This document shows positions 1,261 through 48,475 of a stretch of 64,000 nucleotides of DNA, piece by piece. The position numbers and the translations under genes were made by a program. The stretch's first letter is position 1, and each line of letters opens with the position of its first letter. The stretch is from Leucoraja erinacea (Eukaryota): contig NC_073391.1 of NCBI RefSeq assembly GCF_028641065.1, positions 42,408,001 through 42,472,000 on the forward strand, in the 5' to 3' direction. The notes under the pieces are model-generated. The model was not told the origin of the DNA and did no database searches. It was given only the letters and a program-made list of their open reading frames with translations.

Positions 1261-3620
1261 AAAGCCGCTTTGTTCTTGAAATTTAACCTGGAATAAGTAA
1301 AATACTGTGTAATATTTGGAGGAGTCACTATGGTGGATGTTTATGTTAAAATGTATTTTGTGTGTTCCATTGCTTTTTATTTGTGTGACTGACTTGGCAA
1401 ATGAAATCAATGAATTAAGTAAAACTTGTCACTAAAAAAAAGTATGCCATGGCAAGCATGAAAATACCATGTAGCTATTTAAAAAAAAAAACCCATCTGC
1501 TTCATGGTTCCTTTTTCAGGAAGGAAATATATTGTCCTCTAGTAACTCCAGGCTTCTGGTACCTGTAGTTCACTGCTAACTTTCCACTCTGCAGAGGCGC
1601 AGTAAATGGTAGGACTAATTTAGATGATTACAAGCCATAGAATGACACAGTGTGGAAACTGGTTATTTGACCCAACTCATCCATGCCAGCCAAGTGCCCA
1701 ACATGAATGAACAAAAGAAAACAGTTGTATTACCTTCGCTTGGGAATGAATGTTGACTTTGTGCTCTCCTAACTAAAAGCGTTGATACTTTTTGTATGCC
1801 AGTTTGCACTATACCTGCAAATAGTTCCTCTTGAGTTTGTGCCCATACATATAGAGCAGCCAACTATCTTCCAGTGCAGTAAAAAAAACGAATAAAGCAA
1901 GGGACTGGAGTATTACATTGTAATAAAATACATAAAGTGCTTGAGTAACTCAGCGGGTCCAGTGGCATCTCTGGAGAACATGGATAGGTGACGTAATGTT
2001 TATTTCCGTGTAGAATTTAAGTTCTCTCAGCTAAGCAGTTTTTACTCACCAAGGACTAAATGAGCAGAATGCTTTTCAAATCTGCATGTTTTCAGTCGTT
2101 GGTAAAAATTAACAATCAAGTAATATAGCATGACTTTGACTGGATAATTGGTCAGTCTCTGCAATTCGTGGCACTGAGGGATAAACTTAGGTCTGTTTTA
2201 TTTAGGGCAAATTGAGATGTTCTAAATGCAGAGAAAGATTTGTTCAAAACAGGGGTCAACACGTTCATTTCATCTGGCTAGACCATGCATGACATTGCCA
2301 AATGTTCACTGGTACTAGTCCAAGCAGAGAAACTGCAAATTTGTTCTTGTGCTGAGGATTTGTCAACCGAGCATCCTATGAGCTGAAGGCAAACACAAAG
2401 GGTTCAGCTTCATTTCTACTTTGCAAACTGTTTGAGTTACCTGGGGAGGACGTGTATCGCTTTTGGAGGTTTCAAGGGGATTAATTTCTAAGAATTTTGA
2501 TCAACCAAACCCTTTTCTGGGTGGTGTGTAGTGCATGTCTTCAAATGAAGCATCAAAAACTATAAAGTCTGAAGAAAGGTCTCGATCTGAAACGTCCGCA
2601 TGGTAGGCTGCTCTGGAAGGTTAAATGTGATAATTCGTGTGCTCTGACAGTGGAGAAGGCCCAGGTCAGAAAGGGGACACTCAGTGGTGGATCTCTATTT
2701 TATGTTTCACTCTGAGAAGCTTGTGTAAATGAATCGGTTCTGCAGATTTGTCAATCAGGCCTACAGTAAGTGAGTTGAATGCATATCATGGATTGAATTT
2801 ACTGTTAATAGTTCTCTATTCCCACTGCTGTATTGACTTCTATCATCTGTCTCTGTATCAAATAATAACCATTGTGATCAATTGTCATGCTCATTCTACA
2901 GCTGCCATTTACACCAAGATTTTATTTTGTCCTTTGTCCACTCTTAACTTGCTGCAGCTCCTTCACCATTTTAATCCATCTTGGTCATCAGAAATGTTTC
3001 AGTTTTGTTCTTCCTGTCCCTCCACTTGTTTAAATATTATCACATTCGTAACACTTTCTATTTCGGATTTAAGATTATTGAAATATCAATTTTGTTTCTC
3101 TTCATGGATGCAGCCTGACCTGGTGAATATTTATGGCTGTTTTTTTTATTCAAGATTTCTAGCATCTGCAGTAATTAATTTTCCTTGCCATTGTGTTGTT
3201 CTGACTTGAATCCAACTCGTATAGTTTTAGTGCATTCATAGTCTATGTGATTTTGCCAATATATTTCATCATTGTAATACCTTCTTTCTACAAATGGCGA
3301 TTAATGGAATTGTTTTATATTTGTGTTTTATATATTTTTTTTGCAACATTAAAGAGCCATCAATCCTGGTAGTTGTCCTTTCTTGCTGTTTTCTAATCGC
3401 ATATCTGTTTGAATAAATCTTTGAAAAGAAAGGTTGGCTTAAACTTGAGCAAGCGAAGACTAACTAAATTACCTAAATTGGTTAACGTGTTGTTTGTTGA
3501 GAAATGCAAAAAAGATTAAAGTTAATCCTCCAATTTGAAGTGAAATTCTGAAGAATTCAATTGTGTATTGAAAATATCATTTTGTCAAGCCTAAAAAAAA
3601 TGTTTTTTGTCTTAATCCAG

Positions 3621-3665
3621 GTTTCTCGATGCAAAACATAAAAACCATTACAAAATATACAACCT
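3621..3665 (+). CDS. PTEN: PTEN exon 3 (phosphatase domain; (R)FLDAKHKNHYKIYNL)
   Basis: ttaatccAG acceptor and GTaagt donor; 45 bp, as in human exon 3; peptide matches PTEN FLDSKHKNHYKIYNL. Confidence 0.96.
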
Positions 3666-4069
3666 GTAAGTATGCTTTTACTTATACCTTTTATGAGTGT
3701 TAAATGTAGAAGTCAAATTAAGGACAGTGTTTCGAGACCAAACTCTGCTTTGGAAAAATATGACGTGTTTCAACTTTTTTAATCTGTGCCTGTCTTTCAA
3801 ATCTTCATTCACTGGATGTGGGCATCACTATCAAGGCCACCATTGTCTCCCTAATTGCTGTCAAAACTCACGAGAATGACTTTCTCTTTCTAGGATAATT
3901 AAATGCTATTTTTTGAAGTGCTATTGTTCGTGTGGTGAATTTTAATTCCCAGAGAATTTGAGTGTTTTGACTTTCTGCAAAGGAAAGACGGTGTTCCATT
4001 TGAAATCATGGTACATGATTTGGACTGACACTTGGTGGTAGTACCATGTGCCTGGTGACTTTGTCAAAG

Positions 4070-5060
4070 CCCTGTAGACAGTACAGAAACACGACTTTGA
4101 GGACCACTTCATCCATGCTGACTATCATGCTTATTTACACTAACCCTATGTGTCGACATTAACAATACTCCTTTCCTTTCTAAGTACCTGTCCAAATACC
4201 TTGTATCTGCCTCCACTATGCCGCCTCCTCTGCATGGGGAAAAATTACCCCCATGATCTAAACTCCCTTCTCACCTTACCCTCCAGCTCTGAACCTCCTT
4301 GCCCTGGGAAAAATATGTTGTCTATTTATCCTATGTGTGTCCCTCATTTTTTTTTTTTAAATTGGAGTAAAAAAATTAATTTCTCTCCCCCCCTCCTAAG
4401 TTCCATTTAGAATAAATTCAGCCGATTCACTCTTGCCATAAAACTACAGCTCTCCATTGCAGGCAACATCCAAATACCTCTCTTGTGTACTCGTTGTACA
4501 GTATTCTGTAGTTGTACAAAATGTTGGTACAGAAGTAATGTCCCAACTGTTATACTCAGTGCCTTGGCCGATGAAGGTGAGCGTACCAAACGCAATTTTT
4601 ACTATTCTATACTGTGTCGTAACTGTCAAAGACCGATGGACTTGCGCCCTAAGGATTGTCTTCATAGCAATGCTCCCAAGGTCCCTGCTATACATCCTAA
4701 CAGAATTGCCCTCCCATAGTGCATTACCTCACATTTGTTTGAATTCCACATGCCACCAGTTCAGCTAATCTATGTCTAATTGTAATTTTAAATAGTCACC
4801 TTTATCTACAACTCCACTCATTTTGGTTATCAGGACTTAATCATACCCACTGCATACGCTTGGTCCCAGCACCAAACCTTGCAATACACCTTTCCTTACA
4901 GATATCAGTCAGAAAAACACTGATCCACCATTACCCTCTGCTTCCAGCCGCCCAAACAATTTTGGATCTGGTTTACTGACAAGCAGCTGATCCCTTGTGT
5001 CAGACCCACCTGCTGGGTAGTACCTCGTTAAAAGCCTTGCTAAAGTCTGTATGAGTAGAA
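4070..5060 (-). mobile_element. Old, degenerate CR1 fragments
   Basis: Minus-strand ORF remnants (VKIAFGTLTFIGQGTEYNSWD..., VQRVHKRGIWMLP) resemble the CR1 ORF2 C-terminus. Confidence 0.6.
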
Positions 5061-5220
5061 GTTGCAAGTTTAGGAAGTCTTATTGAAGAAACTTTAACAC
5101 CGATCTTTTAGATAAACGCTTTGCAGCAAGGTTCAATTGATGCACAAGGAATTAGTTTATAAGGTGATGAATGGGGTGAAGTTAACTATTTTCTCTTCGT
5201 ATTGGGCATCTTGAGTAAGA

Positions 5221-5426
5221 AGATGCTGGTTTACACTGAAGATAGACACAGAATGCTGGCTTAACGCAACAGGGTCAGGCAGCATCTCTGGAGAAAAGGA
5301 ATTGGTGACATTTCGGGTCAAGACCCTTCATCAGACTGATCTCAACCCAAAACATCACCTATTCCTTTTCTCCAGAGATGCTCCCCGACCCGCTGAGTTA
5401 CTCCCAACATTTTGTTTCTATCTTCT
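5221..5426. mobile_element. Penelope-derived inverted-repeat (hairpin) element
   Basis: Left arm gaagatagacacagaatgctgg...agcatctctggagaaaaggaa is the reverse complement of right arm ttccttttctccagagatgct...cattttgtttctatcttc. Confidence 0.75.
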
Positions 5427-6318
5427 GGAGCATAATAAATGCTGTTGAAGTTGCACTCACCTGGACATGTGGAGAGTATTCTATCAGTCTTGGTGTGTGT
5501 GCACCTTGCAAATGACATTGCTTGCTGCAGAATGCACAGCCGCAGGTTTGCAGTTGTTACCTGAGGTTGGTTGATCCAAATAAGCCACAGGCCAAAGCCA
5601 CAGTGATTCCCAGAATGTTGAATTTCAACAAACACGCAATATGAAATTATTTGCCTAGGGAGACAGTAATCGAGTTATTGTCTCAAGTAAATGAGTCCTG
5701 ATCAGAACAGCTGATTTTTTTTTTTTTTTTTTTTTTCCCCAGCTGACTTGCTGATGAGCTTTTCCAGTATTTTCCATGTCAAATGTTTGTGTTTTGGTTA
5801 GCTTAGCATACAATGATTTCGAATTTGGATTGTTTCTTCATTCTAAGTGAATTATTATAAATTGTGCTCTAAATACCCTGTGAAGAGAGATTATGTCTGA
5901 TCACCAATGCAGTTCTCGCTCTGCACGATTCACAGTTGTCATAGGAATATTATCACACCCAGCAATTATCCGGAATTTTACAGTAGACTTTAAAAATCTA
6001 GTTTTCCGAAGAATCAGCTGGACAGCACATAAATCTGGTGAAACCATCAAGGGCAGACTATTGGCAAATTCTGAGCTCGTTTAAGGAGAAGCTAAGATGA
6101 CACTGGATTCTAGGGAATGTTGTAAAGCGACCTTCATATTTTGTATTTGGATGGTGTTTGTGATTATTCCATTGATTGTGCAAGCCTGCTCTTGAAAGTA
6201 GTACCCCTGGGTGTCTGGAAGATACCGTAAAGATCTGCCGATGTGAGAATTGGCAACAGCAGAGAAGTTGAGGTTTTTTTTAAAACAAGGTGACAGCCAA
6301 ACTGAAGGTTCGGTGAAG

Positions 6319-6502
6319 AAGGAACTGCAGATGCTGGAAAATCGAAGTTTGACAAAAATGCTGGAGAAACTCAGCGGGTGAGGCAGCATCTATGGAGCGA
6401 AGGATCTCAGTCTGAAGAAGGGTTTCGACCCAAAACGATGCCTATTTCCTTCGCTCCATAAATGCTGCCTCGCCTGCTGAGTTTCTCCAGCATTTCTGTC
6501 CA
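6319..6502. mobile_element. Penelope-derived inverted-repeat element
   Basis: atgctggagaaactcagcgggtgaggcagcatctatggagcgaagg pairs with ccttcgctccataaatgctgcctcgcctgctgagtttctccagcat. Confidence 0.75.
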
Positions 6503-6634
6503 CGTTTGGTGAACAATGTAAGCTAACATGAGGGTGAGGAAGGGAGATTGACTAGTCAACTGCTCAGTAGAAATGTTACCATGGGTTCTTTAGGGGAAAT
6601 CAAGCTTAAAAGACATGAAAGAAAATTATAAATT

Positions 6635-7215
6635 GATGTCAAGAGTGTTTTATTGTCATGTGTCCCATAACGGAACAATGAAATTCTTACTTGCAGCAGT
6701 ACAAGAAATATGTGAACATTGTGCGCTGTAAACACCATAATAATAAAGAAAGTTTGGTACGGTAATAGTGCAAAGACAAAATCATTGTCCCCAAGTCGAT
6801 GTAGTTTGGAACTTATATGGAGGTTGTGGTGTTTAACAGCTGATGGTTGTCGGGAAGAAGCTGCTCCTGAATTTGGATGTTAGTTTTCAAGCTCCTATCC
6901 AACCTTCCTGATGGCAAGAGTGAAACGAGAGTGACTAGTGTAGTGAACAGTGTAGGCTGCCTATTTGTGGCAGCGTCCTGTAGATCTCTTTGATGGTGCG
7001 GAGGACTATACTCGTGATGGACTGGGCAGTGTTCACCTCTTTGTGCAAATCATATTCATTCCTGGGTGTTTGAGTGGCTGAACCAGGCCAAAATCCATCC
7101 AATCAATATGCACCTGTATAACTTCAAGAGAGTATTCGTTGACGTACTAAATCTTCTCAATCCCCTGAGGAAGTGATGGGCTTTCTTTATGATTGCTGGG
7201 TCCTAGACAGATCTT
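6635..7215 (-). mobile_element. Rex1/Babar-like LINE 3' fragment
   Basis: Tail tgacaataaaacactc on the minus strand; gggaagaagctg...cctg and cttcctgatggc motifs shared with the Rex copy at 50166. Confidence 0.6.
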
Positions 7216-7899
7216 CACTTGAGAGTTCAGGAAGGGATAAATCTGTAGACTGGTCTGGTGACGTGGAGGAAAGAAGCAGATTGTCATAAATTAGCTGTTT
7301 GGTCTCAATCCTAGCCCAGTCGTTGGAGGCGAGAGTGATGGATTGGGAGGATGACAAAATTAGTTTCAGTGGAGCAAATTAGGCAAATTTATTTTTGCAA
7401 TCCAAGACAAACCTGAAATTGGCGAGAGTTTTGTCGGCAAATGCTCAGCTGTTTATCATGGCCCAGTGAAATGTTTAAATAAACTACCTGCAAATCCATT
7501 CAACTTGGTAATTTGGACTGAAGGAAATGAGATCATGGCCGAATAAGGAGAGTGGTCAGAGTGATAACTTTATTGTTAATCAAAGATCAAAGATAACATC
7601 CCCTGACAGGGTACCTTTAGTCACATTCTTTACTTAAAACTGTATGTTCTCTCTGGCAAGTAATAGATTATTTTAGTTGCTGTAGAGATTTAATCAACGT
7701 AATTGGGGTTGATGGTATGAATATTATGCGTTGTTTCATAGATTATTTTCCAGTGGAGTCGTTTATTTCTTGGAAGATTAAATAACTTGGAAGATGATTC
7801 CAATTAGGCCTTATTTTTCAGCTAAAAATAACTGTTCTTAAATGAGTGGTATTTGATTGTTGTTAAAGATTGACTGGAGTGCCACAATTTAATAACTGG

Positions 7900-8700
7900 G
7901 CCAGAGAGCAGAGAAACAGGCTCTCTGGCCACTATGTCTGTGACCAAGTATGTATCTATACTAAGCCAATTTACTAGCATTTAGTCCACCACATGTGTCT
8001 TGCTGATGAAATTGCGCATCCAGCTGTTTTTTAAATGTTCTGAAGTATCTGCCTCCACTGTTCCAGATTTCCCCTACCTTCTGGGTGAAAAACAACTTTC
8101 CTCAGATTCCCACTAAACCTACTATTCCTGGTGTTAAACATGCACTGTGGTCTTGGACACCTGCCATAAGGAAAGGTTTGTTCTTATTCACCCTAGCAAC
8201 GACTCACTTTTACCTTTCAGGCCCCTCCTCAGGCTCCTGTACTCCAAGGAAAACTAACGTAGCCCGTTCAGTGTCTCCCAAAAATCTCTTCTCGTCCTCT
8301 CCCGTGAAACCTCGTCTTTCCTATAGTGCAGGAACCAGAACTGCACACACTATTCAAGCTTTAGATTAATAAATGTTTTGAAAGCCATACCGAGTCTTGC
8401 TTTTATATTCTGTACTCGGGCTATTGGAGGCAAGCTGAATGCTGCCTTCACCTTATCTACCTGCGCTGTCACCTTTGCTAATCTTTGGACTTGTACACCA
8501 AGGTCTTCGCCAAATTCCGTAGCAACCCCAATGTATCTCATCGAGTCCTGGTCCAAGACCTCGTTTTTAATCTTAATTTTTTCCAGAATTTCATTATTCC
8601 AAATAAAATTCCTCACTGCAATATCTACAGATAGAACATTTTCATTAAAGGCATGCTTCTGCACACATATAGATTAGCCCTTTGGTCCCTAGTCTTACCC
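7900..8700 (-). mobile_element. Old CR1 fragment
   Basis: Remnant EDLGVQVQRLAKVTAQVDKVKAAF in ORF 8350-8664, with a CR1-like 3' end near 7910. Confidence 0.55.
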
Positions 8701-9179
8701 TGGTTACCCACTTGATTCCAATATATCCTTAGCCACTTTTGGTCCTCCATTCTTCTTTTTTAATCTAACACACATGAGGTGCATGTACAAGTTGGATGCT
8801 CTTTATTCCTGATGGGCCTCTCCTGTTTTCAATGTTCTACACTTATCGTATCCTTTTTTTTAATCAAACCTTTGATATCCACAGATTCTCAGAACTTGCA
8901 GTCTTGCAAATTGGCCCTGAATTCTATCTATTTGTCTATCAATAGGCACTCAATTCCCCAATGTAGATTCACCTGTAAGTAGAAACAAAGAACTGCAGAT
9001 GCTGAAGATAGCAAAGACTGGCACAGTACTGGAGTAACTCAGTGGGCCAGGCAGCATATTTGGAGATAAAGGATGGGTGACATTTTGGGCATGACTCTTC
9101 AGACTGAAAGGACTGAATTAATCGGAATGAATTTAATCCTGTGTGAACAAACACACAACCAAAAGTACACAGCACCTAA

Positions 9180-11800: not shown

Positions 11801-11804
11801 GACA

Positions 11805-12810: not shown

Positions 12811-13259
12811 TTCTCCCCTCTAGTCTGCCACGATTCATTCTTGGAATCATTATCTTACATAAACAAATGGCAATTCCTGATTTATTTTGTTAGTCGCGTA
12901 CTGTGCAGTTGTTCACCAAATAGATAAAGTGGCTAATGGGGTCAAATAAATTGTTTGCTTCTTGTAGTTCCAGAGGTCTGCGAAAACAATCTAAATTATT
13001 GAATGCTCAATGACGGGACCATAATTTAGCCTGTACACTGGTTGCATTTATTGAACAGTTATGTACCGAGTGTCTACAGTTGAGTATAACGGATAGCATT
13101 AGTCATCTGGAAGCCTGATGCAGCTTGTGTACCTTTACTAAACTTTAATCTAGATCATTTTGACTTTGAAACTGACTTGTTTAAAATGATAGCATCTATC
13201 TTCAGCCTTTGCCTGCCTAATTAGATTGCAGTAATGTTAAAGGATATATTGCGACAAAC

Positions 13260-13475
13260 TAGTCTGAAGAAAGGTCCCGACTTGAAACGTCGCCTGTCCA
13301 TGTACTTCTCAGATGCTGCCTCATCCGTTGGATTAATCCACTCTGAAAAAAGGGTCTTGACCTGAAACTGCACCTATTCCTTTTCTCCAGAGATGCTGCC
13401 TGACCCACTGAGTTACTCCAGCTTTTTGTGACTATCTTCAGTTTAAACCAGCATCTGCAATTCCTTCTTACACAT
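13260..13475 (+). mobile_element. Two tandem Penelope terminal repeats
   Basis: ctgaagaaaggtcccgacttgaaacgtc at 13264 and ctgaaaaaagggtcttgacctgaaac at 13343, each followed by the agatgctgcc tail. Confidence 0.75.
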
Positions 13476-15582: not shown

Positions 15583-15824
15583 ATTGGAACGAAGAGATGT
15601 GCTGGAAATTGCAAATCCATTGCACCAAATTCACAGTACATTGCAGTCTCAGCTCAAGGAAACAATCATGTGAGAAGCTAAAAGGAATCAATGGTGGTTA
15701 ATGATAGGTCTCAGTGGAACAGCAGTGACCTGAACAAAGACCTCATCACACTCTCATGGAAGCAGCAGTGAAATAAGCAGCAGCACAAAGTATGGCAAGC
15801 CCTTGACTGAATGGTGATCTTGGT

Positions 15825-16243
15825 CAACACAAAAAGCTGGAGAACTCAGCAGGTCAGACAGCATCTCTGAAGAATAGGAATAGGTGCCTTTTCTGGTCTG
15901 AAGAAAGGTCTTGACCCGAAACGTCATCCATTCCTTTACTCCAGAGATGCTGCCTTACCCGCTGAGTTATGCCCCTGTCCCACTTAGGAAACCGGAACGG
16001 AAACCTCTGGAGACTTTGCGCCCCACCAAAAGTTTCTGTGCGGTTCCCGGAGAGGTTTTTGTCAGTCTCCCTACCTGCTTCAACTACCTGCAACCTCCAG
16101 CAACCACCTGCAACCTCCGGGAACCGCACAGAAACCTTGGGTGGGGCGCAAAGTCTCCAGAGGTTTCCGTTCAGGTTTCCTAAGTGGGACAGGAGCATTA
16201 CTATCTTTGGTTTAAAACCGCATCTGCAGTTCCTTCCTGCACA
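15825..16243. mobile_element. Penelope-derived inverted-repeat element, interrupted by a MITE
   Basis: Arms cagcatctctgaagaataggaa and ttcctttactccagagatgctg; the host sequence resumes after 16200. Confidence 0.7.
15970..16197. mobile_element. PIF/Harbinger-like MITE (near-palindromic; TTA target-site duplication)
   Basis: ~85-bp TIRs (tgcccctgtcccacttaggaaacc... / ...ggtttcctaagtgggacaggagca); TTA at 15967-69 and 16198-200. Confidence 0.8.
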
Positions 16244-19052: not shown

Positions 19053-19096
19053 ATGTGCAGAAAGACATTATGATGCTACTAAATTTAATTGCAGAG
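19053..19096 (+). CDS. PTEN: PTEN exon 4 (CAERHYDATKFNCR; contains C71)
   Basis: cccttgcAG acceptor and GTgagt donor; 44 bp; phase continues from exon 3. Confidence 0.96.
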
Positions 19097-19672: not shown

Positions 19673-20270
<598 letters not shown>

Positions 20271-24874: not shown

Positions 24875-25084
<210 letters not shown>

Positions 25085-25845: not shown

Positions 25846-26137
25846 GTTTGGGAGGGACTAAAACTAAAGTTTGAGCAGATTGCTGCTCCACATTTTACCC
25901 ACAGAGCTATTGATTAATACATAAAACTTAATTCAGGTGGTCAATACCGCGTGGGGTGATGGTGGAGTGCTAACAGTTGACTGCTCCTTAAGATTGATAT
26001 GTGCGTATCAAACTAAGTCCTATTAGCCGTGGTGATCTATTAACTGTATGTGCAGGATGTAAATTGGCTGGAAATTATTTGGCAATTTCATTTCCTGCTG
26101 CTCCTAAAATTTCGATTCGCAACTTGAATATTTTGGA

Positions 26138-26375
26138 GATAGACATAAACTGTTGGAGTAACTCAGCGGGGCAGGCAGCATCTCTGGAAAGAAGGAAAGG
26201 GTGACGTGTCGGGTCGAGACCCTTCTTCAGATTGAGTCGGGGGGGAGGGAGATATGGAGGGGTATGGTGCGAAAACGAAAGATTAAAGCAGACAATGATA
26301 AGAAATGTAGAATGGTTCTTTGTTAGCTTTGGGGAAGGTGACAAGGATGCATACGATCAGTAAAATTAATCCAAA
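26138..26375 (-). mobile_element. Penelope 3' terminal region
   Basis: Reverse complement resembles 47720-47965. Confidence 0.7.
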
Positions 26376-27360: not shown

Positions 27361-27765
<405 letters not shown>

Positions 27766-31079: not shown

Positions 31080-32700
31080 CGCCATTGTCTCTTCCATGCT
31101 CCGTGTAAAATCAGGGAACTGGGCCTCTGCTCCTCCCAATGCAACTGGATCCTCAACTTCCTTATTAGCAGACCTCAATCTCAGTGCCGATTGACAACGT
31201 CTAGTTGAGCATCAGGACAGGGCCACCTTGATCAGCCCCCTGACCTACTTTCTACACCCTTTACTGTAGCTAGACCTGGCTCCAAATCCACCTTTAACTT
31301 TGCCGAAGATAGACACAAAAAGCTGGAGTAATTCAGCGCGTCAGACAGCATCTCTAGAGAAAAAGAATAGGTGACGTTTCGGATTGAGTCCCTTCTTCAG
31401 TCCATCTCCAGAGATGCTGTCTGACCCGCTGAGCTTTTTGTGTCTATCTTCGGTTTAAACCAGCATCTGCAGTTCTTTCCTACACTTTAAATTTATCAAT
31501 GATACCAACGTTGTTGTATGTAGAACAGATAATGCCAAGTCAGAATACTGGAAGGAGATACATAACATAGTTCAGTGATACCAGAATAACAATCTTGCCC
31601 TGAACATTCAGAAGACCCAAGAAGGTCATTTTGACTACAGATAGGATATACTGAGGGAACTGCCCCAATCCTCATCGGCCGAATGGCAGTGACAAGGATC
31701 AATAGCTTCATGTTTTTTGGGCGTTCACATCTCTGACCTGCTCTGGGCCCAGCACATTGTTGCATTCACTAAGAAAGCTCGCCAATGCCTCTCTTCTCAG
31801 AAGTTTAAGAAGATCTTCTTTAGTCAAAGGGTGGTGAATCTGTGGAAATCTTTGCCACAGAAGGCTGTGGAGGCCATCAGTGGATATTTTTAAGGCAAAG
31901 ATAGATTTTTGATTACTAGTCACTTGACCTTATGAGATTCAGCATGTCACCGAATATGCAGGATTCATTGCCACAGACAACTGTGGAAGCCAAGTCAATG
32001 GATATTTTTAAGGCGGAGATTGACAGATTCTTGATCAGTAAGTGTATCATGGGTTATGGGAGAAGGCAGCAGAATGGAGAGGAGATGGAAAGATAGATCA
32101 GCCATGATTGTGTAGCGGAGTATTGTGTAGCGGAGTAGAGGCCTAATTTTGCTCCTAGAATTTATGAATACTCTTGAACTTCTACAAGTATACGGTAGAG
32201 AGAATACTGACTGGTTGCCACAAAACCTGGTTCGTAACTCGAGCGCTCAGCCAAGAGGAAATCGATAGAAAGTGGTGTAATTGCCAAGTCCATTCTAACC
32301 TCCCCAACATAGAGATCTACAGGAAGTGCTGCTTTAAAAAAGTAGCAAATATCATCAAAGGCTATTTGCACCACTCTATGCAAGGTTCTCTTCCTGTTGC
32401 TGCCATTGGGAAGAAGTGCAGGAGCATGGGAACTGTTAATCTCTCGTTCAAGAACAGCTTCTCCCCATCAACCACAAAGTTACTAAATCACCCTGCACAA
32501 CCCTAACCACAATCCAAACTTGGCAGGGAACCACTGCAGACATTGCACAACTTTGGTTGCACTATGTGCTTTCCTGGTCTAATTTACAATGAATTCAGTT
32601 ATTCAAAGTATATTTATTGTTGTTATGTTGCATTTAATGTGTCTGTAAAACAGCGCTGTAAGAATTTCATTGTTCCGGTTCATGGCAATTAAACACTTTA
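31080..32700 (+). mobile_element. Degenerate Rex1/Babar LINE interrupted by a Penelope hairpin (31305-31485) and CR1 pieces (31812-31920, 31960-32165)
   Basis: tgcaactggatcctcaacttc (CNWILNF), tttgccga (FA-D); ORF 32174 NFYKYTVERILTGCHKTWF...SFKNSFSPSTTKLLN. Confidence 0.7.
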
Positions 32701-35842: not shown

Positions 35843-36130
<288 letters not shown>

Positions 36131-37954: not shown

Positions 37955-38170
<216 letters not shown>

Positions 38171-38219
38171 AATATTTTTATGGGAAAATTAAAACTGCAA
38201 GAAAAAGGAAACACACTTG

Positions 38220-38225: not shown

Positions 38226-41200
38226 CTGAAAGCAAGTACCTTTTTTAATGGCAATAGGACAATGTGTCAAGTAAAATGCTACACCAGTTATAGGAACAAT
38301 GATCTTTTCCTGACCAATGTTGTTTAGCCCCATACACATACATCCACGAGGTTTTGACACTGTTGTCCAATGAAAAATGATTGCGTAGTTATATATCTAT
38401 ATACATTTTTTGTGTGAAATGACGCACAAAAGCGCAATCAGGATAAAAGAGGCACTTTCCCGTTTAATTCCAGTTTTATAAAAAGTGGAGACAGATCTGG
38501 TGTGTACGTAGGAAATCTTTTCCTTTTATGTTATGTTGCCAACAGTAGGTGCTCATTTACCTGTACAAAGGTTTAAGCCCTGCCCCCTTTAAATCTATAT
38601 AACAGTAGATCAGTCTGTTATCAGCCAGGAGGATCTTTGAGAAGGTTTGCATAAAATGCATGTTTTTTGGTGGGGAAAAGGGATTTGAGAGAATGCACAG
38701 AAAGGAAGGAAAAAAAAAATCCATAGTCTGGTTCCAGTACCACCGGCGGCCTTTTGCACCTTTTTGCGAGCCGTTTGGCCCGGCAGGTTGTGCAATTGGC
38801 CGGTACTGCTGCTTGCTTTTTGTGCTTTCAAAGCACACTGGTGCTAGAAGAGGCAGCTGGATTGAGAAAAAAAAAATCTTTCTGGGAGGAGGCTTGAACC
38901 CTGGACAAAAAGACCCAAAATCTGCTGGTCCACAGATGGTCAGATTGTGGAGTCTGTGTAGGGCAAATTTTCAAGCTTTTTCCTTCCTTTCCTAAGGGAT
39001 GTTGCAAGATGGTGTCCCTTGGTAAAAAAAAAAGGCTCAATTTTATAAATGTGGCAGCATGCCAGCTCAAAATATGACAGTTAATGTAAAAAGGAGAATT
39101 TTACGATGATTTAATAAGTTAGCTAGAATTATTTTAATTGGTGCTGCTCCACATGTCCTTTGTAACCAAGGCCAGTGCTTGAAGTTGATCACTCTTTTGT
39201 TAGTACTGTTTTGGACTATAAGTCAGTATCTATATAACTTATCTTCATTATGTTTGTGTAGTTCTAGCTGTTTTATTTCTATTGGCAAGATGCCTTCTTT
39301 CTCCACATCTCATATTGGCATTTGATACTTGGTAAGGGCGAATTTTGGATTGGGAGTATGCAGCATGTTTAGGTGGCATGTGTCAGGGACATAAATGTGT
39401 GTTGTATGGAAGTAAACAGAAGTCACAGCCAATGTTTCAACAGGGTAAACTGATTTTAGCAAGGTCGTAGTATGCACAGAATTTTAACATGAAAATTAAG
39501 AGGTTTTGTATTCATATTCTAGGAAGCTGTTTGTACCTTCCTCATCTGTAACAGCATGAAATGAAGTCTCTTGTGTTCTGTTGGTTTATGTGTTAAGCCA
39601 GTAGTTGTCGTCATTTCCTGTGTTTGTCAGAAAATAGAACTGCATACTCCCACGGGGCCTAACCAAATGAAGTGACGTAGCCATGGTGAAAGTCTGTGAG
39701 AAATCTTTCATATTCTCTTGTAAGGGACAGAATCAAGGCTGTGTTTTAGCTATGGAAACCTGTATTTTACTGGAGGGTTAACGCATTAAATTGTACCTAT
39801 TATTTTCATTACTTCAGCACGAGATTTATTCTGCTTGGCCATTTGGTGATGGACAACTACAATTACAAAATTGCGTCTGGCTTGGGCTGGAAGTAACTTC
39901 CCAAAAAAACATTTAGTGTTGGTTAGTGTCTAGATGTTTCAGTTCTGGTGTCTGTTCTTGCTATAAACCACAAATCTTTTTTAAAAATCTTTCTTTGTAG
40001 TGGTGCTTTAAAACTGTCTAAAGGCTAATGTGAAGAGCATGAGTTGTGCAGTGAAAGAGAGATGGACAAATGTAGCTCAAGAGGGAAGGAATGCAGGTTT
40101 ATAGATCAAATTACAAGCTTCTGTTGACAGTTTTCTTTTATTGATGGAACTTTCCTTTTAACTTTTTTTATTGATTTCCCCCACCCCACCCCCCTTCAAA
40201 ATCCGTTCATTTCTGTTGCTAAATAACTGAACATTTGAGACATGCCACTTTTGAAGAGTTTCCTTATGTATATCATCTTTCATAAAGACGTTTACCACTA
40301 AATCTTATTTTTATATTGATAATAAAAAGGAAATTTTGACAACCAGGAGCAGGCAATAAACGCCCGTTTGTAAAAGGTGCACACGAAACAAGTGAAGGAA
40401 AACTTTCCTGCCTTACATGCCTTGGAAATACTTAGCTTGGCTTCAGGCAAAGTATTTATACAGCTTTATTTTCCCTTCAACATTAGGGGGCAAAGTGGCA
40501 GCCCTTTCATCTTCAAAACACTGACAATTAGATTCAGTGTCACTTGGAACGCTAAGGAGCTGGGGGTAAGAGCAGCTAATATTGTACTGGGCTTTTGCAC
40601 TGTAAGAGTTTTTTTTTTTCATTTTCTGTTGAAAATCGAGGGTGTATTGGGGTCCATAAACAACTTTTCCAAACCTTCCAAAGGTTTGCATGCTGAAGCT
40701 GGAATAGGTGGCAATAGTATGTTTTCATATTCTTGTATTGATACCATCCTTGTAGAGTCAGACATACGTTACTTTGACTGAAAGTTGTCCAGTCTCTTTT
40801 TTTTATTTATGACAGTATTCATAACTGGTCTGGTAAAGACTTTCTGTAGATTATCTCTCTTGAGTTTCCAGACTATATGCTTAATAAAAAACAAATTCTT
40901 TGGATGTGCAGCAGCTTAATGTCTGAAATTGTTTGTTGACAGCATCACTGTAAAGGAATTTATTTTGGCCATCTTTAGTCATCTGTAGCCCCACTGAATT
41001 ATATTTGCCACGGTAAAAACACAAAGGGCAGTTGCATGGGTAGCTTCAGGGGTCGTGCGCTGTGGCACAAGTTATGGACCGAGTGGATTTCACAGGCAAC
41101 ATCAAATATCCAAGTTTCAGCTTTAAACCATTCATAAGGTGCCAGTGTTGAGAGTCCATTTCATTAGTAATACCAGATTTGTGCAATATGTTTAACAAAG

Positions 41201-41625
41201 CCTGTGGTTGCCACGAAGTGCCTCTTGTTTACTTAAAATACTGTTCAAAAATTTGTCATCATGCATGCAGATGGAGAAAGGTGGAACTGTGCACTATAAA
41301 GGGGCTTCACTGCAGTGTAGGACAATGCTGCCTGCTGCTCTACCTGTTCAGATTTGGATTTTGTTTCATATAAAAGATGTATACAGAAATATATTTTCAG
41401 CCTGTAAAACAGCCTTTTCCATTTCAGCCTGTTAAAGATACTATTGTGCTGTGCAGCTATTTGCTCTCTGTGTAATGCCATGCACTGAGAATACACAAAA
41501 AGTAAACCAACAAATGTAAATTGTACAGGTTATCGATGCTCATAAAATCCAATGTCCATTTGTTATTGTATGTGTTGTTTGTTAACAACCCTTTATCTTA
41601 CTGTTATAAACTCCACTTAAAACCA

Positions 41626-41653
41626 ATTAAAGATTAAAGACTCATTCTTGTCA
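41626..41653 (+). terminator. Distal polyadenylation signal: tandem ATTAAA (41626-41631 and 41633-41638), predicted cleavage near 41653
   Basis: Doubled ATTAAAG heptamer, a CA 15 nt downstream, then U-rich sequence; corresponds to the recalled end of the long mammalian UTR. Confidence 0.7.
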
Positions 41654-41769
41654 TTGTGCAATAGTTATAGTATTTAACCTTAACCATTCTGTCTTCATTT
41701 TCTTTTCATTTGCTTAAGTAATGTACCATTTGTATAGGGGAAAGAATGTAAAAGATCACCTCCAGTTTT

Positions 41770-42192
41770 TGAAGCAGGGTTCCGACCCGAACCGTCGCCT
41801 ATTCGTGCCCACCAGAAATGATGGGTGACCTGCTAAGTAACTGGAGCACTTTGTATTTGTATTATTTTTTTTTTTAAACTAGCATCTGCAATTCCTTATG
41901 TCTCCAATTTTTAAGACTGGTGCCATGTCTTCTGTGAGATGTGAGGAAACTGTTGGCACAAATACTTCAGTGATAGTCAAAGGGCTGAAAGAACTCGGCA
42001 AGTCAGGCAGCATCTGAAGAGAGAACGGACAGGTGATGTTTCGGGTTGGTACCCTTCATCAGTCTGAAGAAGGGTCTTGGCCCGAAACGTCGGCTGTCCA
42101 TTCTCTCCTAAGATGCCGCCTGTCCCATTGAGTTCCTCCAGCACCCTGTGTCCTGCCCAGGATTCCAGCATCTGCAGTTCCTTTTGTCTCTA
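41770..42192. mobile_element. Two Penelope-derived elements directly downstream of the PTEN poly(A) site; the second (41978-42192) is a hairpin
   Basis: gaagcagggttccgacccgaaccgtc at 41771; intact core ctgaagaagggtcttggcccgaaacgtc at 42064. Confidence 0.7.
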
Positions 42193-42969
42193 CTTCAATA
42201 ATATGACGGATGCAAGTAAAAATGCTACTGTCCTATTTCCACCTATTTAATGTTTTATCTTCGCCTTTCATGTCCGATCCACTCTGTTCCATTTTACATT
42301 TTTCCTATGCTCTAGTAAAACATGACTGTTTATCCACCAGCAAGGAAATGTTTTGCTCTTGAATAATTCCAGGCATTTTAGAATTATTTTCCTCCCCAGA
42401 GGTTATTTACTGTACTCATTGTTTATTAATACAAAAAGGGGCTTTCTGTTACTCCACAACCAATCTCATCTATGCCAATTTGAATTTTGTATTGTTTTTA
42501 ACTTGGTACGTTCAAGTTCGTCCTGGACTAAAACTTTGAGCTTGCCTTATCTCGTCTATCTAATACTTCCATATTTGAATGTTTCTCCAGATTGCTGTTC
42601 TTCAGAGCTGAAACATCTAGGTGTTTTGGCTCTTTCCGGTAGCTCTTTGGTTCTCACACTTGACACCAGCGTCATTTCCAGAATTTGAAGCTGGACCCAA
42701 GCTCAAAACAATAATTGAGTTGGATTTTGACCACAGCATTGTAAAGTCTCAGCAAGTCATCCTCTGTCTGAAGAAGGGTCTCGACCCAAAACATCACCTG
42801 TTCCTATTACTTTTCTCCAGAGATGCTGCCTAACCCGCGGAGTTACTCCAGCATGTGTGACTAACATCCTCTGACTTGATCTGTTTCAACTAATATAGGG
42901 AATGTGAATGAACCATTTTCAGACTGGCATGCTGTAATTAGTTGTGTACAACAAGGATCAGTGTTGGAG

Positions 42970-43373
42970 CTTCCATTGACTCCCTTTATACCTCAGGCTG
43001 CGTTGGCAAGCCCAGGAGCATAATCAAGGTCGAGTCGTACCCTGGCCACTCCCTCTTCTCCCCTCTCCCATCAGGCAGAAGTGTGAAATCGCACACCTCC
43101 AGATTCAGGGACAGTTTCTTCCCAGCTGTTATCAGGCAACTGAATCACCCTACCACAACCAGAGAGCAGTGCCGAACTACTATCTACCTCATTGGTGAGC
43201 CTCGGACTATCCTTGATCGGACTTTGCTGGCTTTACCTTGCACTAAATGTCATTCCCTTATGTATCTATACACTGTAAATGACTTGATTGTAATCATGTA
43301 TTGTCTTTCTGCTGACTGGTTGGCATGCAACCAAAGCTTTTCACTGTTACACCTGACAATAAACTAAACTGAA
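42970..43373 (+). mobile_element. Rex1/Babar LINE 3' fragment
   Basis: ORF 42942 contains SIDSLYTSGCVGKPRSIIKVESYPGHSLFSPLPSGRSVKSHTSRFRDSFFPAVIRQLN; tail tgacaataaactaaact. Confidence 0.8.
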
Positions 43374-43489
43374 ACGGGTAGCGTTGCGGGTCGGGGGGGG
43401 GGCTTCTTCAGAACCGACTCTGAAGTGTCCCGACCCAAAGTGTTGCCTGTTGATTCCCCTCTCAGATGCTTAGCGACCTAGATGAAGGA

Positions 43490-44150
43490 ACACCATTGTT
43501 AGTCAAATTTGCTGATCATGCAAAGAAAGGCGGGAAAGTTAAGTTGTGTGAAGACTACAAAATCTGCAAAGAAATATATAATATGTAAGGTGAGTGAACT
43601 CAAAATTGTTAATGGAAAAAGTGAGGTTTGAAACTATCCCCTTGAGTCGGGGAAATGTAACAACGCAGCATATTTAAATGGCAAGACCACAAAATGATAC
43701 TCCATGAGTGCATCCAGTTATGTGTATAGTACAGGCCTCAAGAGACTGAGCTTTAGGGAGAGGCTGAGCAGGCTAGGACTCTATTGCTTGGAGCGCAGTA
43801 GGATGAGGAATGTTCTTATAGAAGTGTACAAAATCATGAGAGGAATAGATCATGTAAATATGGTCTTTTGTCCAGAGTAGGTGAATCGAGAACCAGAGGA
43901 CATAGGTGTAAGCTGAGGGGGGGGGAAGATTTATTGGGAACCCGAGGGGTAACTTTTTTTTATGCAAAGAGTGGTAGATATATGGAATGAGGTAGTTGAG
44001 GCAGGGACTATTGCAATGTTTAAGAAATAGACGGGTGCATGGATAGGATAGGTATAGAGGGCCTAATGCAGGCAAATGGGATGAGCTTAATTGGGGCATC
44101 TTGGCAAGTTAGGCCGAATGGCCTGTTTACATGCTGTATGACTCCGACTC
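43490..44150 (+). mobile_element. CR1 fragments
   Basis: aaatttgctgatcatgcaaag (KFAD remnant); aggctaggactctattgcttggag...gaaccagaggacatagg; CR1-type 3' end. Confidence 0.7.
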
Positions 44151-44329
44151 TACTGGAAGTAATTTAAAGAGCAATATAACGTTAGCCTTGATTGCCTGAA
44201 GAATGCCCAATAGAAATAGACAACATCTTGTGTACAAAGAGCTGGCGAAACCACAATTGAAAGATGGTTTTGGTTCTTCTAAGGAAATGCCGCTGGATTG
44301 AGGCGGAGTTATTTCCAAGCCAGCGTTGT

Positions 44330-44775
44330 GGGTGCCGAGGTGGCGATGAGGTCAAGGTTGGAAATGCAGACTCTTCCATGGGTGGGGCAGGTTGTGGTCA
44401 ATGGGGTGGTCGGGAACATCATTTGTGATGTGGAGCGATGATTCTGTCAGCCTCATAGGCTCAAAGTGTTCTGGTATGTGTTTTTGAGGTTCTTGGTATC
44501 ATCCAGAATGCCCACTCCACTTTGAGTGACTGTGGGGGCCGACATTCTCGGCAGATGAAGTGGATGTGGCAACTTCTCAAGATGGTTCTATGCACATTCT
44601 TGAATCTTTCCATCTGGTGGCCTCAGGGTGGCATCTAATTCACGGGGCTGGAATGCAATGGTCTGCCCAATGTAACTGAGTACAACTAGTGCCTCTGTAC
44701 TGGGTATATTGGTGCAATAGACAATGCTAACATTGGTTCCCTTGTATTTGCAGTCAATTTGTGGAAAGGACACTA
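44330..44775 (-). mobile_element. Old RTE-clade LINE C-terminal fragment
   Basis: Minus-strand QIDCKYKGTNVSIV..TNIPSTEALVVLS, frameshifting into LHWADHCI, resembles RTE (IxWxDxxTNVSVL..ANIPSIEALI..QLRWAGH). Confidence 0.5.
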
Positions 44776-44776
44776 A

Positions 44777-45430
44777 CTTCGCAAGCCCTTTTGTTTCGGT
44801 ACTGCTATTCATTCTTTTTGTATCTATAACCATATAACAATTACAGCACGGAAACAGGCCATCTCGGCCCTACAAGTCCGTGCCGAACAACTTTTTTTCC
44901 CTTAGTCCCACCTGCCTGCACTCATACCATAACCCTCCATTCCCTTCTCATCCATATGCCTATCCAATTTATTTTTAAATGATACCAACGAACCTGCCTC
45001 CACCACTTCCACTGGATTATAGATCTACTATAGATCCAACTTCTACTTATAGATCCAACTTCATCTTTCCACAAAATAAATCCCTTCCGACTAGAAATGG
45101 GCTGAAAAGACTTAAAATGAAAGTCCGGGTGGTCTGATATCCTCGCTCATTCCAAAGACGTGTGGGTTTGCAGGTTAATTGGCTTCTGTAAATTGTCCCT
45201 AGTGTGTAGAATAGAACTCGTGTGCCTTTGGTCGGTGTGGGCCGAAAGGCCTGTTTCCATGCTGTATCTCTAAACTAAAACTAAACTAAACCTATCCATG
45301 TTCTCCAGAGATGCTGCCTGACCCATTTCTAGTCGGGAAGGGATTTTTTTGTGGAAAGATGGTTAGATCTATAAGTAGATATAAAAAGAATGAATAGTAC
45401 TGAAGTACTGAAACAAAAGGGCTTGCGAAG
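44777..45430. repeat. ~110-bp inverted repeat (left arm split by CR1 3' end 44828-45016) enclosing SINE and Penelope fragments
   Basis: 44777-44827 plus 45047-45101 match the reverse complement of 45322-45430. Confidence 0.85.
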
Positions 45431-46089
45431 ATGGATATTTTTCCTTGGTTTTGTGATGGTGGAGGGGGTGGTTGAATCTAGAATCAGTGGATGTAGTTCA
45501 GAATAAGGGATTGCTCATTTAAGAAGGTAAGGTCATGATGAAGAATTTGGACGTAAGTATGGAATTCTCTTAACCCGGAAAGCGTGCAGGTTATTGACTA
45601 TATTAAAGACTGAGATGGACATATTTGTACAGAAAATTGGCCAACAGTTATGGAACGAAGGGATGAAGTAGAATGAAGGCCAAGGTCAAGTTAACCTTGA
45701 TCATTTTCAATACTGGGTCCACATGGGCTATTCCTGCGCTAAAAATGTCCTTCAGGGTTCAAGTTGTTGCATTTACTACAACTTCAATCTATAAATATCT
45801 TAAATGTTGAGTCCAACAACACTGTCCACCGTTTTGCAGCTTTAGCCTTGGATTGTAATTCAAAATCCATATGTGGTCTGGTTTTATTTAACGTGCGATA
45901 CTTGAATATACCTTTTTTAATTTATAGGTAGCCAAAAATGCTGGAGAAACTCAGCGGGTGAAACAGCATCTATGGAGCGAAGGAAATAGGCAATGTTTCG
46001 GGTTGAGATAACTTTCTGCTGGTCTCCCAGTTTGTCATCTGTGTTTCACTTGGCTTCTTGGAAATTCTTTGCTCATTTACATTAGAAGG

Positions 46090-46380
46090 GCAGCACACTA
46101 GTGCTGTTAGTAGAACTGCTGCCACACAGCGCCCGAGACCCGTGTTTGATCCTGACCTTGGATACTGTCTGTGTGGAATTTGCACGTTCTCCCTCTGACC
46201 GCATGGGTTTTCTCCAGTTACTTCCACACTCCAAAGATGTGCAGCATTTCAGGTTAATTGGTTTCAGTAAATTATAAAACTTTCCTTGGTGTGTAGGATA
46301 GTGCTAATCTATGGGGTTATAGCAAGCCAGCGTAGACTCAGTGGGCCAAAGGACCTGTTTCCTCACTGTATCTCTGTATA
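46090..46380 (+). mobile_element. HE1-like V-SINE (older)
   Basis: tRNA head and V-core ggaatttgcacgttctccc. Confidence 0.7.
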
Positions 46381-47606
46381 GAAAAAAAAATTACTTTGCA
46401 AGTTATTGCCTGACCAACAGTAGTTGCTTTGGTATTAACCATTTTGAATTTGGGATATTTCTTTTGACACCAAGGCATTTGTCTTGCTGCTCGCTAATAT
46501 TTCATGAAATTCAGCCCGGAATAAACAGGATAAATGCAGTGGGAATAGTTTTCTGGGATTTTCATCTCAATCAGAGTAAAGCTATGACAAACTTGGATTG
46601 CCTCTTGGAATGCATGTCCTCCCATATGAATAAGCCAAGAATATAAAGGCAAAAGTGGAAAAAAAACATTTTTACATGTTGGTTCCAGTTAACAATCGGC
46701 TCAATACCTTTAAAGGTTGTGCTGGATCTTTAAATCAATTAACTTTCATAACTTTAATGAAAGTTATCACATTAAGTATATTACATTCATTTATAGGTGA
46801 TGTTATGGGTCGAGACTGAGGAAGGGTCAGACCCGATGAGTATGGCTGACTGACTCCAGCATTTTGTCTACAAGGTCATAAGTGATAGGAGTAGAATTAG
46901 GCCATTCAGCCCATCAAGTCTACTCAGCCATTCAATCACGGCTCATCTATCTCTCCCTCCTAACCCAATTCTCCCGCCTTCTACCCATGACCTTTGACAC
47001 CTTTACATCTTAACCAGAATCTGCAGCATCTTCATATCCATTACATTCTTTTATGATCTTTTGAGGTGTTGCCTCTATTCCCACTCGTGTCACCCATTCT
47101 CCCCATATACTGCTGTATATTCACTGTTTGCTCTATTCATTTTCTGATTCCTCTACACTCCAGGTACCTGTGTACTGAAGGCTCACAATTATCCAACTGC
47201 TATTTCTTTCTGCAGGCATTGAGTATAGTTTGATTTAACTATGGATCCTCAAGTTAGTGTTTAGTGTTGAGCCTGTGAGCAATGGGCGTGCCCTTGCAGA
47301 ATCCTCAACCTCTGAACACTTAAAGGATTACAAACTTATAAGTGTTTTTAACACTCATCCCATCCTATTATTTACTTGACCACAGCCATTTTTTACAAAT
47401 TGTATGTCTAACCTCTGGACCATAATCTCAAAATAACAGTGGTGGTTACAATGTGATCATTCACCTCAGGGTACCATTATTTTCATACTTTGTACATGCT
47501 TTCCATTGTCAAATTAAATGTATCGACTGTTTCAATTGTTTTAAAGTGTACTGTATTACAAGTTTTCATACCTTAACTTTGTGGAGATTAGGACATTCCT
47601 AAGGTC

Positions 47607-47995
47607 TTGGGCACATTTCATCCCAGCGGTATGAACATTGACTTCTCCAACTTCAAGTAACCCTTTTTCTCTCTCTCCCTCCATCCTTCCCCCTTCCCAG
47701 TTCTCCGACCAGTCTTAGTGTCTCCGACTACATTTTATCTCTGTTTGCTTTGTTGTTACCTTCTCCCAGCTAACAATGATCTATACCACATTTTCCTTGA
47801 TCTCCATTACCTTTATCCTATTTTCACACCTTACACTTCCGTATCTATGCTTCTACCCTCTCCCCTGACATCAGTCTGAAGAAGGGTCTTGAACCGAAAC
47901 GTCACCCATTCTCCCCAGAGATGTTGCCTGTCCCGCTGCGTTACTCCAGCATTTTGTGTCTATCTTCAGTTTAAACCAGTGTCTACAATTCCATC
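47607..47995 (+). mobile_element. Penelope-like element 3' end (ORF C-terminus plus terminal repeat)
   Basis: 47607-47660 translates LGTFHPSGMNIDFSNFK*; hammerhead-like core at 47876-47903. Confidence 0.8.
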
Positions 47996-48049
47996 CTAAG
48001 TTAATGTTGGGTTGTTTAAAATATTCCTGATAATCAAACGCAGAACATT

Positions 48050-48475
48050 GTTTCAGACAAAAGCTGGCGTTTGTTTCGCTGAACACCTGAGCTCGGTCCA
48101 CCTTGGGCTACGTGAACTCCCGGTTGCCAAACAATCTAACTACCCTCCCCATTCACACACTGACCTTTCTGTCCTGGGCTGTCTCCATTGTCGGAGCGAG
48201 GCAAAACTCAAATTGGAGGAACCTCTTATTTAATTTGGGTAGCGTACAACCCAGCGGTGTGAACATTGTTTTCACTAACATTAAGAAACCCCAACTCTTG
48301 GTCTTCTATTCGAGGTTTGTTCTGGCCTTTTCCTACCTCCAGTCTCTCTTCCCCCCCCCTCCCCCAACCCACTTTCAGTCTGAAGAAAGGTTGCACCGCG
48401 AAACATCACCCGTCCATTTTCCCCAGAGATGCTGGCTGACCTGCTGAGATACTCCAACACTTTGTGTCTATCTTT
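48050..48475 (+). mobile_element. Penelope-like element GIY-YIG endonuclease remnant plus terminal repeat
   Basis: QTK..FAEHLSSVH..ELPVAK..NYPPHSHTDLSVLG..HCRSEAKLKLEE and FNLGSVQPSGVNIVF are typical of the PLE endonuclease C-terminus. Confidence 0.8.

Follow-up and report, generated by a model that had tools for sequence, protein, structure and literature searches.

Hammerhead motifs at the PTEN locus

Our analysis concerns hammerhead ribozyme motifs in and behind the PTEN gene of the skate Leucoraja erinacea, in a stretch of 64,000 nucleotides (nt) that is referred to as the window (NCBI RefSeq assembly GCF_028641065.1, contig NC_073391.1, positions 42,408,001 to 42,472,000 of the forward strand). 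A preliminary description had linked the motifs to Penelope-like elements (PLEs) and had proposed that they place potential self-cleaving sites in introns of this tumor-suppressor gene. The motif is real and is one more vertebrate case of the PLE minimal hammerheads, a type already known. We are confident that the copies are best explained as hammerhead-bearing terminal repeats of a very abundant PLE, whose short insertions likely undergo neutral decay and likely leave PTEN RNA uncut.

PTEN lies on the plus strand, where seven exons with AG/GT bounds splice into one open frame that reaches a stop: exon 3 (3621..3665), exon 4 (19053..19096), exon 5 with the phosphatase active site (19698..19936; E=3e-47 to solved PTEN chains), exon 6 (24935..25076), exon 7 (27404..27570), exon 8 (35900..36115; PTEN_C2, E=7e-13) and the coding part of exon 9 (37982..38170). 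The exon numbers, and hence the label intron 2, presumably follow those of the human gene; splice-site rules found neither exon 1 nor exon 2 within 60 kb upstream. Two ATTAAA hexamers at 41626 and 41633 (41626..41638, plus strand) likely mark the end of the 3' untranslated region (UTR), as matches to the repeat family described below are absent from 36979-41769 and read depth past the hexamers is found only on repeats. The ~3.5 kb that follow the stop (38170-41769) are free of the otherwise dense repeat, which fits a constrained 3' UTR.

A regular-expression scan for the motif, CTGA(A/T)GA-A-stem II-GAAA-CG-TC, found plus-strand starts at 2569, 13264, 15898, 42064 and 47876, exactly where the preliminary description had put them, and minus-strand cores with C3 at 5334 and 31400; a fuzzy scan added minus-strand cores with C3 at 26230 and 61588. 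These four minus copies had been placed near 5304, 31371, 26201 and 61560, and are real, the low-end coordinates being off by a few bases only. All nine cores are present, but as a census the set falls short: they are nine of 40 matches, rather than of about ten, to one ~100-nt repeat, as counted with a profile built from 75 genomic copies (38 matches at E<=1e-3, 40 at E<=1e-2). The placement in PTEN introns holds for 2569, which lies upstream of exon 3, and for 13264 and 15898, which lie within intron 3, but not for 42064 and 47876; together with a further core at 48380, these are found 3.9-10.2 kb past the stop, which ends at 38170. These three copies are likely outside the PTEN mRNA and would be included at most in read-through RNA.

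When graded, two of the 40 matches were intact, seven kept all catalytic nucleotides with a stem defect, 18 were broken and 13 had no core. The five plus-strand cores had all been described as intact. Only 13264 and 47876 pass the full check, while 2569, 15898 and 42064 fail on stem defects; 13264 is thus the single intact core among the three intronic ones. The solo core with C3 at 2569 (2565..2596, plus strand, in the intron before exon 3) keeps its catalytic nucleotides and has neither stem I nor tail. The intact minimal core with C3 at 13264 (13258..13340, plus strand) belongs to an old copy with a tail diverged by 33%, and its stem II is not predicted in context. It is part of the only tandem pair in the window, the second core of which (13339..13441, plus strand, C3 at 13343) is dead (G8>A, U16.1>G). 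As this partner lacks G8 and U16.1, neither site of a 13264/13343 dimer could work, and a dimer construct of 13255-13385, suggested in the preliminary description for a cleavage assay, is therefore predicted to be dead at both sites.

The core with C3 at 15898 sits in a fold-back element (15822..15971; such elements are given here without a strand), carries an A10.1/C11.1 mismatch and is predicted to be held in a hairpin. Inserted directly in the tail of this copy is an inverted repeat pair of 88 nt (94%; 15965-16202), which likely represents a small DNA-transposon-like element. Three further fold-back pairs are found at 5236..5427 (minus core, C3 at 5334, stem III palindrome lost), 6342..6508 (plus core at 6412, broken by G12>A and U16.1>A) and 31303..31453 (minus core, C3 at 31400, catalytic nucleotides kept, no 2.1-1.1 pair). 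The minus-strand copies at 26135..26235 (A14>C) and 61496..61593 (C3 at 61588; G12>A, U16.1>G) are broken, as are all of the copies at 36882, 21844, 10013, 6412 and 862.

Behind PTEN, a head-to-head element (41972..42183) holds a plus core with C3 at 42064 and a minus core with C3 at 42062. A long predicted hairpin buries the plus core, which has only one stem I pair and keeps its catalytic bases at 27% tail divergence. The intact core with C3 at 47876 and its tail (47870..47969, plus strand) show three of four stem II pairs, ~216 nt past the stop of a PLE endonuclease and outside the PTEN coding region, while the decayed core with C3 at 48380 (48375..48476, plus strand), with which a second PLE fragment ends, has lost stem II and palindrome. 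At 45290-45326 (plus strand) lies a tail-only copy, the start of which coincides exactly with the base that follows the cleavage site.

Abundance of the repeat and its parent element

As a control sample we used 120 regions of 10 kb in 48 other genes, 1.2 Mb in total, oriented by Pfam exon matches; 40 of the regions surround mid-domain kinase exons and 80 lie within eight ion-channel genes, and it should be noted that regions may extend beyond small genes. The motif occurs far above chance. A 33-nt core has 3968+4004 = 7,972 exact matches in the 2.19-Gb genome, compared with 0+0 for the reversed control, and a strict structural descriptor gave 20 matches in the 1.2 Mb, all from the PLE repeat, and none in each of five dinucleotide shuffles. 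The profile matched 567 copies in this sample, i.e. about one copy per 2 kb, which, extrapolated from intragenic sequence, corresponds to about 10^6 copies in the genome. PTEN is not special in this respect: its 38 kb contain 28 matches, 15 sense and 13 antisense, at about the density seen in other genes. An Rfam scan of the window returned no hammerhead family and only sub-threshold microRNA matches, which arise from the fold-back hairpins; such a scan is uninformative against a minimal motif.

The origin in Penelope elements, proposed from endonuclease C-termini near the cores, is borne out. The reading frame of a PLE GIY-YIG endonuclease ends at 47600..47660 (plus strand; final codons and stop), with the same terminus in longer relatives, a frameshifted PLE endonuclease fragment lies at 48063..48285 (plus strand), a core follows each, and related loci show the same order. 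A protein search of the genome gave 111,156 first-look endonuclease candidates. In 20 endonuclease-anchored loci the order was endonuclease stop, 90-220 nt, core and tail, with no tandem; a core can be read behind the stop in most of those loci that reach far enough, in seven of the 20 by a strict regular expression and in more by eye, and several loci are truncated. Behind its open reading frame (ORF), the element carries a spacer of 90-220 nt, then the minimal hammerhead, then a tail of 65-100 nt.

None of 14 long-frame loci has a fully intact ORF. One of them, L071, has a single 506-amino-acid frame with a reverse transcriptase (RT), a CX4CX2C linker and, at its C-terminus, a GIY-YIG domain, and a core 117 nt past the stop. 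The Pfam matches of this frame (RVT_1, E=2e-4; GIY-YIG, E=0.043) fall below the curated cut-offs, as do the GIY-YIG matches across five proteins (E=3.6e-4 to 0.045), and a PDB search with the RT-endonuclease frame gave no matches. Such an ORF, with a hammerhead-bearing pseudo-long terminal repeat (pLTR) behind it and 5'-truncated, tandem and inverted copies, is what characterizes endonuclease-bearing (EN+) PLEs. A CX2-5CxxC linker between RT and endonuclease defines the Neptune and Nematis clades (PMC8557442), and the skate ORFs carry one. Judged by this linker, the element appears to be of Neptune/Nematis type, the two clades being taken together. It shares with the elements described there the succession of RT, linker, C-terminal GIY-YIG and tail, as well as 5' truncation, partial tandems and adjacent inverted copies (PMC8557442).

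Most insertions retain only the terminal 100-130 nt of the element: in 30 loci chosen by exact core, the copies can usually be aligned from only a few bases 5' of the core to 95-135 nt 3' of it. Head-to-head pairs account for 228 of the 567 sampled copies, while same-strand neighbors within 200 nt number 37. No convincing target-site duplications were seen at 11 elements.

Anatomy of the ribozyme and comparison with known systems

Taken column by column, the family majority shows every invariant nucleotide, one additional A behind A9, a 4-bp stem II starting with G10.1-C11.1, a loopless palindromic stem III (15.2/16.2), C17 and a 2-bp stem I. This agrees with the anatomy given in PMC4209133 and with the preliminary description, which had recognized a type I hammerhead of the minimal kind, its stem III reduced to a palindrome and an extra base following A9; the caveat of that description, that stem I is short, applies to the family majority. 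The invariant core boxes and the UH cleavage triplet are kept in all four subfamilies (57, 28, 38 and 64 copies; 142 unassigned copies were left out), and so are, in the subfamily majorities, G10.1-C11.1, the extra base and the palindrome.

Stem II pairing had also been regarded as kept across different sequences, but the larger alignment shows no clear covariation. In 290 full-core copies, paired cells at the stem pairs amount to 235, 236, 235 and 253, compared with 232, 235, 236 and 250 expected under independence, and the variant stems are transitions that leave G-U. A10.1 was paired with U11.1 in 11 of 29 copies, versus 50 of 257 for G10.1 (p=0.03; control CpG odds ratio (OR) 2.0, p=0.13), an association that we rejected as true covariation, being a single nominal p=0.03 among about ten pairs. 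Between subfamilies, five differences fall in the ribozyme (two in loop 2, and one each at 11.4, H17 and 1.1). All are compatible with the fold and two turn a U-A pair into a U-G wobble; only such one-sided changes were found between subfamilies, and no two-sided compensatory change. None of the differences affects the 11 invariant positions, for which the chance probability is 0.12. Constraint on the motif in active master elements, as judged from these alignments, is plausible but weakly shown.

Minimal hammerheads have been reported in the pLTRs of metazoan PLEs, among which are the fish elements Xena, Poseidon and Neptune (PMC4209133). The skate motif has in common with them the CUGANGA and GAAA boxes, the extra base between 9 and 10.1, G10.1-C11.1, the loopless 15.2/16.2 palindrome and the position in a terminal repeat, its copies being mostly solo or on opposite strands. 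Helix II has 4 bp and helix I 2 bp, whereas those of the Schistosoma families have 7-8 and 4-5 bp; a 2-bp helix I has been described for Drosophila virilis (PMC4209133). The extrapolated ~10^6 skate copies compare with 4,000-9,000 in coelacanth and Xenopus (PMC4209133). The results and discussion of PMC4209133 do not name cartilaginous fish; its supplementary alignment might. Among the papers listed in literature searches on PLE hammerheads, PLE tandem repeats and cartilaginous fish we found neither the skate family nor the 66-nt repeat presented below, with the reservation that the supplements of PMC4209133 might list shark or ray motifs.

PAc, a Poseidon element of Anolis carolinensis, likewise has a hammerhead in its pLTR just upstream of the tail with which copies end. 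It belongs to another clade without the linker finger, and protein-assisted activity has been tested there, whereas the skate motif is known from sequence (PMC11167929). The ultraconserved, RECK-type intronic hammerheads of amniotes share the type I boxes and the sense strand of an intron, but are canonical, single-copy and conserved across species, while the skate copies are minimal, about a million in number and decaying (PMC6155905, PMC6765202). With no loop 3 and a 2-bp helix I, the skate motif has no canonical helices with loop 1-loop 2 contacts. Non-LTR retrozymes are also PLE-related, non-coding and hammerhead-bearing, and also occur in introns (~43% of Xenopus copies), but form tandem arrays with a full hammerhead per unit (PMC7229834; bioRxiv 10.64898/2026.07.22.740005). 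A tandem scan of the window found no array of at least two units with complete hammerheads, and the 66-nt array units lack CUGANGA.

Decay and strand orientation of the copies

Repeat copies in the control sample show no strand preference (288 sense and 279 antisense, p=0.74). With extended alignments and both stem I pairs required, cores were intact in 18 of 169 sense and 10 of 160 antisense copies (OR 1.79, p=0.17; hand-computed 95% interval ~0.8-4), and all catalytic bases were kept in 61 of 169 and 45 of 160, respectively (p=0.13). There is thus no depletion of intact cores on the sense strand, and a strong depletion is excluded. Across both gradings of the sample intact cores show a slight, non-significant sense excess (OR 1.8-2.1), which is opposite to purging; strand-asymmetric CpG decay was ruled out as its cause, G12>A being found 49 times in each orientation. 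Overall, 28 of 329 core-bearing copies were intact. With 18 intact cores on the sense strand of the 1.2-Mb sample, a single one within the 38 kb of PTEN is ordinary.

The catalytic G12, which is part of a CpG, was kept in 121 of 184 copies, slightly below the other seven CpG positions (73-80%), and thus decays like other CpGs. Retention of C, G and T does not differ significantly between core and tail. The preliminary description had held that a core no more conserved than its flanks would speak against a ribozyme. The outcome is mixed: adenines are better kept in the core, while the other three bases are not. As copies were selected by core similarity, which inflates apparent core conservation, this comparison favors the core.

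Folding, reads and copy ends

In contexts of 60-150 nt, the predicted probability of stem II was 0.00-0.03 for all five plus-strand cores, and the copies at 15898 and 42064 are both predicted to be buried in long fold-back hairpins. Homodimers constrained to the hammerhead fold came to +7.3 (47876) and +2.7 (13264) kcal/mol, compared with -18.7 and -16.8 for the best dimers, i.e. ~20-26 kcal/mol worse. For the published PLE hammerheads, monomers were inactive and dimers weak in vitro (PMC4209133), and the Anolis one was inactive without protein, with RNA-seq ends absent at its site as reported in PMC11167929.

From four runs, two of oligo-dT type and two of single cells, 1-5% each was mapped to 41700-48600. 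Read depth was 0 in unique bins (for example 42393-42623 and 44241-44471), and in the oligo-dT runs 91% of aligned reads continue into unlike sequence and thus derive from other copies. No pile-up of read ends was seen at the cleavage sites 42091 (copy 42064) and 47903 (copy 47876), a weak result given that the reads come mostly from other copies. Among the 567 copies of the control sample only three have their 5' end directly behind the cleavage site (column 36). As there is no peak of copy starts at this site, most templates had likely not been cut.

A 66-nt tandem repeat of the 3' half

Through read joints we found a 66-nt tandem unit, which consists of the 3' half of the core and the tail of subfamily C and lacks CUGANGA. 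Its 22-nt junction has 9620+9551 = 19,171 exact matches in the genome, in arrays with a 66-bp period, 2 in the 1.2-Mb sample and 0 in the window, and is present in RNA reads. The arrays are clustered (dozens within C2:24-26 Mb; arrays were noted at C2:24.2-26.1 Mb and C1:163-170 Mb), with 13 of the first matches listed on most of C1. Seven of 25 arrays, or 11 by a looser criterion, begin with a recognizable core. Divergence is 3% for inner units (n=53), 8-9% for the units at either end of an array and ~20% for the 11 leading cores; selection by exact junction biases unit divergence downward, and similarly selected solo copies are 8% diverged. Inner units thus look younger than the copies they follow. 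At L224:1398-1950 (oriented), C-type units are found both behind a core of type C and behind the tail of an inserted B-type fold-back copy, which suggests that units were added to tails of different subfamilies.

The arrays are likeliest an ordinary, recombination-driven minisatellite, which their clustering in GC-richer regions fits. We give little credence to the bolder idea that a satellite of the substrate half (GAAA box, palindrome and cleavage triplet) and tail spreads into older Penelope tails, by reiterative or rolling-circle copying with the telomerase-like RT or by homology-driven conversion, and that after an intact core the palindrome of the following unit could close stem III in cis, so that a ribozyme otherwise dependent on dimers would release 66-nt RNAs by itself. 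In its favor are the many exact junctions, the low divergence of inner units, the units behind a B-type tail and the presence of the junction in RNA reads. A self-sufficient satellite of this kind is opposed by the leading cores, which are mostly broken, and by a cost of 5-18 kcal/mol for the in-cis fold. Should reiterative copying prove to be their origin, the arrays would be relevant to how telomerase-like repeat addition is related to PLE RTs.

Other features of the window

Another repeat family gives the segment 44700-45400 a very high read depth. In the single-cell runs, loose ends of poly(T) precede 44825 and 44892, the mark of a minus-strand repeat that is polyadenylated and highly expressed. 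A 21-bp tandem array of ~15 copies, open in several frames, lies in PTEN intron 7 (28103-28457). Open frames are found at 33094-33546 (minus strand), 50374-50829 (minus strand), which matches ALKBH8_N, and 57726-58079 (plus strand). We take these three to resemble C-terminal fragments of LINE elements.

Discussion

In the mechanism that we consider best supported, reverse transcription would start in the tail and stop early, in many cases close to where the core begins or with an inversion, and these early stops would leave the ~10^6 5'-truncated or fold-back stubs. Any action of the ribozyme would be confined to the ribonucleoprotein of the element, and, by analogy with published PLE hammerheads, cleavage would occur only as a dimer, via the 4-nt palindrome, or with the help of the protein of the element. 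In active masters the motif would be under constraint, as may be seen from subfamily differences that avoid the invariant core. Inserted copies lose their CpGs, including the catalytic G12, and the host does not purge them by orientation, from which negligible cleavage of pre-mRNA is predicted.

Several points weigh against this explanation and should be considered. Adenines were kept in 887 of 925 core positions (95.9%) and in 980 of 1111 tail positions (88.2%; p=2e-10). A first grading gave intact cores in 24 of 148 sense and 12 of 142 antisense copies (p=0.051), a sense lean that is unexplained. The 80 regions from eight ion-channel genes are pseudo-replicated, and these genes may have little germline expression. 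Neither the tertiary core nor proteins enter the energy models, and the reads cover the downstream region only rather than introns 2-3, with no PTEN positive control.

Among the alternatives, the one that survives best, although we still think it improbable, is that the motif is vestigial even in active elements and serves as a promoter or protein-binding signal with no hammerhead chemistry. A stem I of 2 bp and a stem II of 4 bp are at the shortest published end, two-sided compensatory change between subfamilies is missing, and catalytic mutants of the Anolis element had no effect on insertion in vitro (PMC11167929). On the other hand, the majorities of all four subfamilies preserve every one of the 11 invariant positions together with the extra base, the palindrome and G10.1-C11.1, and the five changes are compatible with a hammerhead. 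This alternative concerns the master element and is compatible with neutrally decaying, uncut copies in PTEN.

It is considerably less probable that intact intronic cores are conditional sites, cut in trans-dimers when PLE protein or RNA is abundant (in the germline or under stress), with low-rate trimming of pre-mRNAs, including that of PTEN, which splicing would mostly tolerate. Partners exist, since poly(A) and single-cell reads of the repeat are abundant, and of the sense copies with a core about one in ten is intact (18/169). A cut deep inside a long intron may escape selection. Protein assistance is known for the Anolis ribozyme (PMC11167929). Opposed to this are an interface of 4+2+2 bp, predicted to be unfavorable by ~20 kcal/mol or more, the lack of a read-end pile-up at 42091 or 47903 (weak) and of a peak of copy 5' ends, and the lack of sense depletion. 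Meaningful self-cleaving sites in PTEN introns, as proposed in the preliminary description, are not supported, with 13264 alone intact, its tandem partner dead and no sense depletion in other genes.

That one copy was domesticated as a regulatory ribozyme of PTEN, 13264 for splicing or 42064, ~430 nt past the likely polyadenylation signal, as a termination aid, is very unlikely: both keep all catalytic bases despite diverged tails (33% and 27%), and conserved intronic hammerheads are known in RECK and other genes (PMC6155905), but one intact core among the PTEN copies is expected from the control sample (28/329), the copies were chosen in the preliminary description by the appearance of their cores, and neither has canonical helices I and III or a predicted stem II probability above 0.00.

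For the explanation by decaying terminal repeats, the consequence for PTEN is little, the tumor-suppressor angle is not supported, and the example is notable mainly for its copy density. Intact cores on the transcribed strand of introns, with no detectable purging, are indirect in vivo evidence that such minimal hammerheads are silent outside their element, a question that the in vitro papers had left open.

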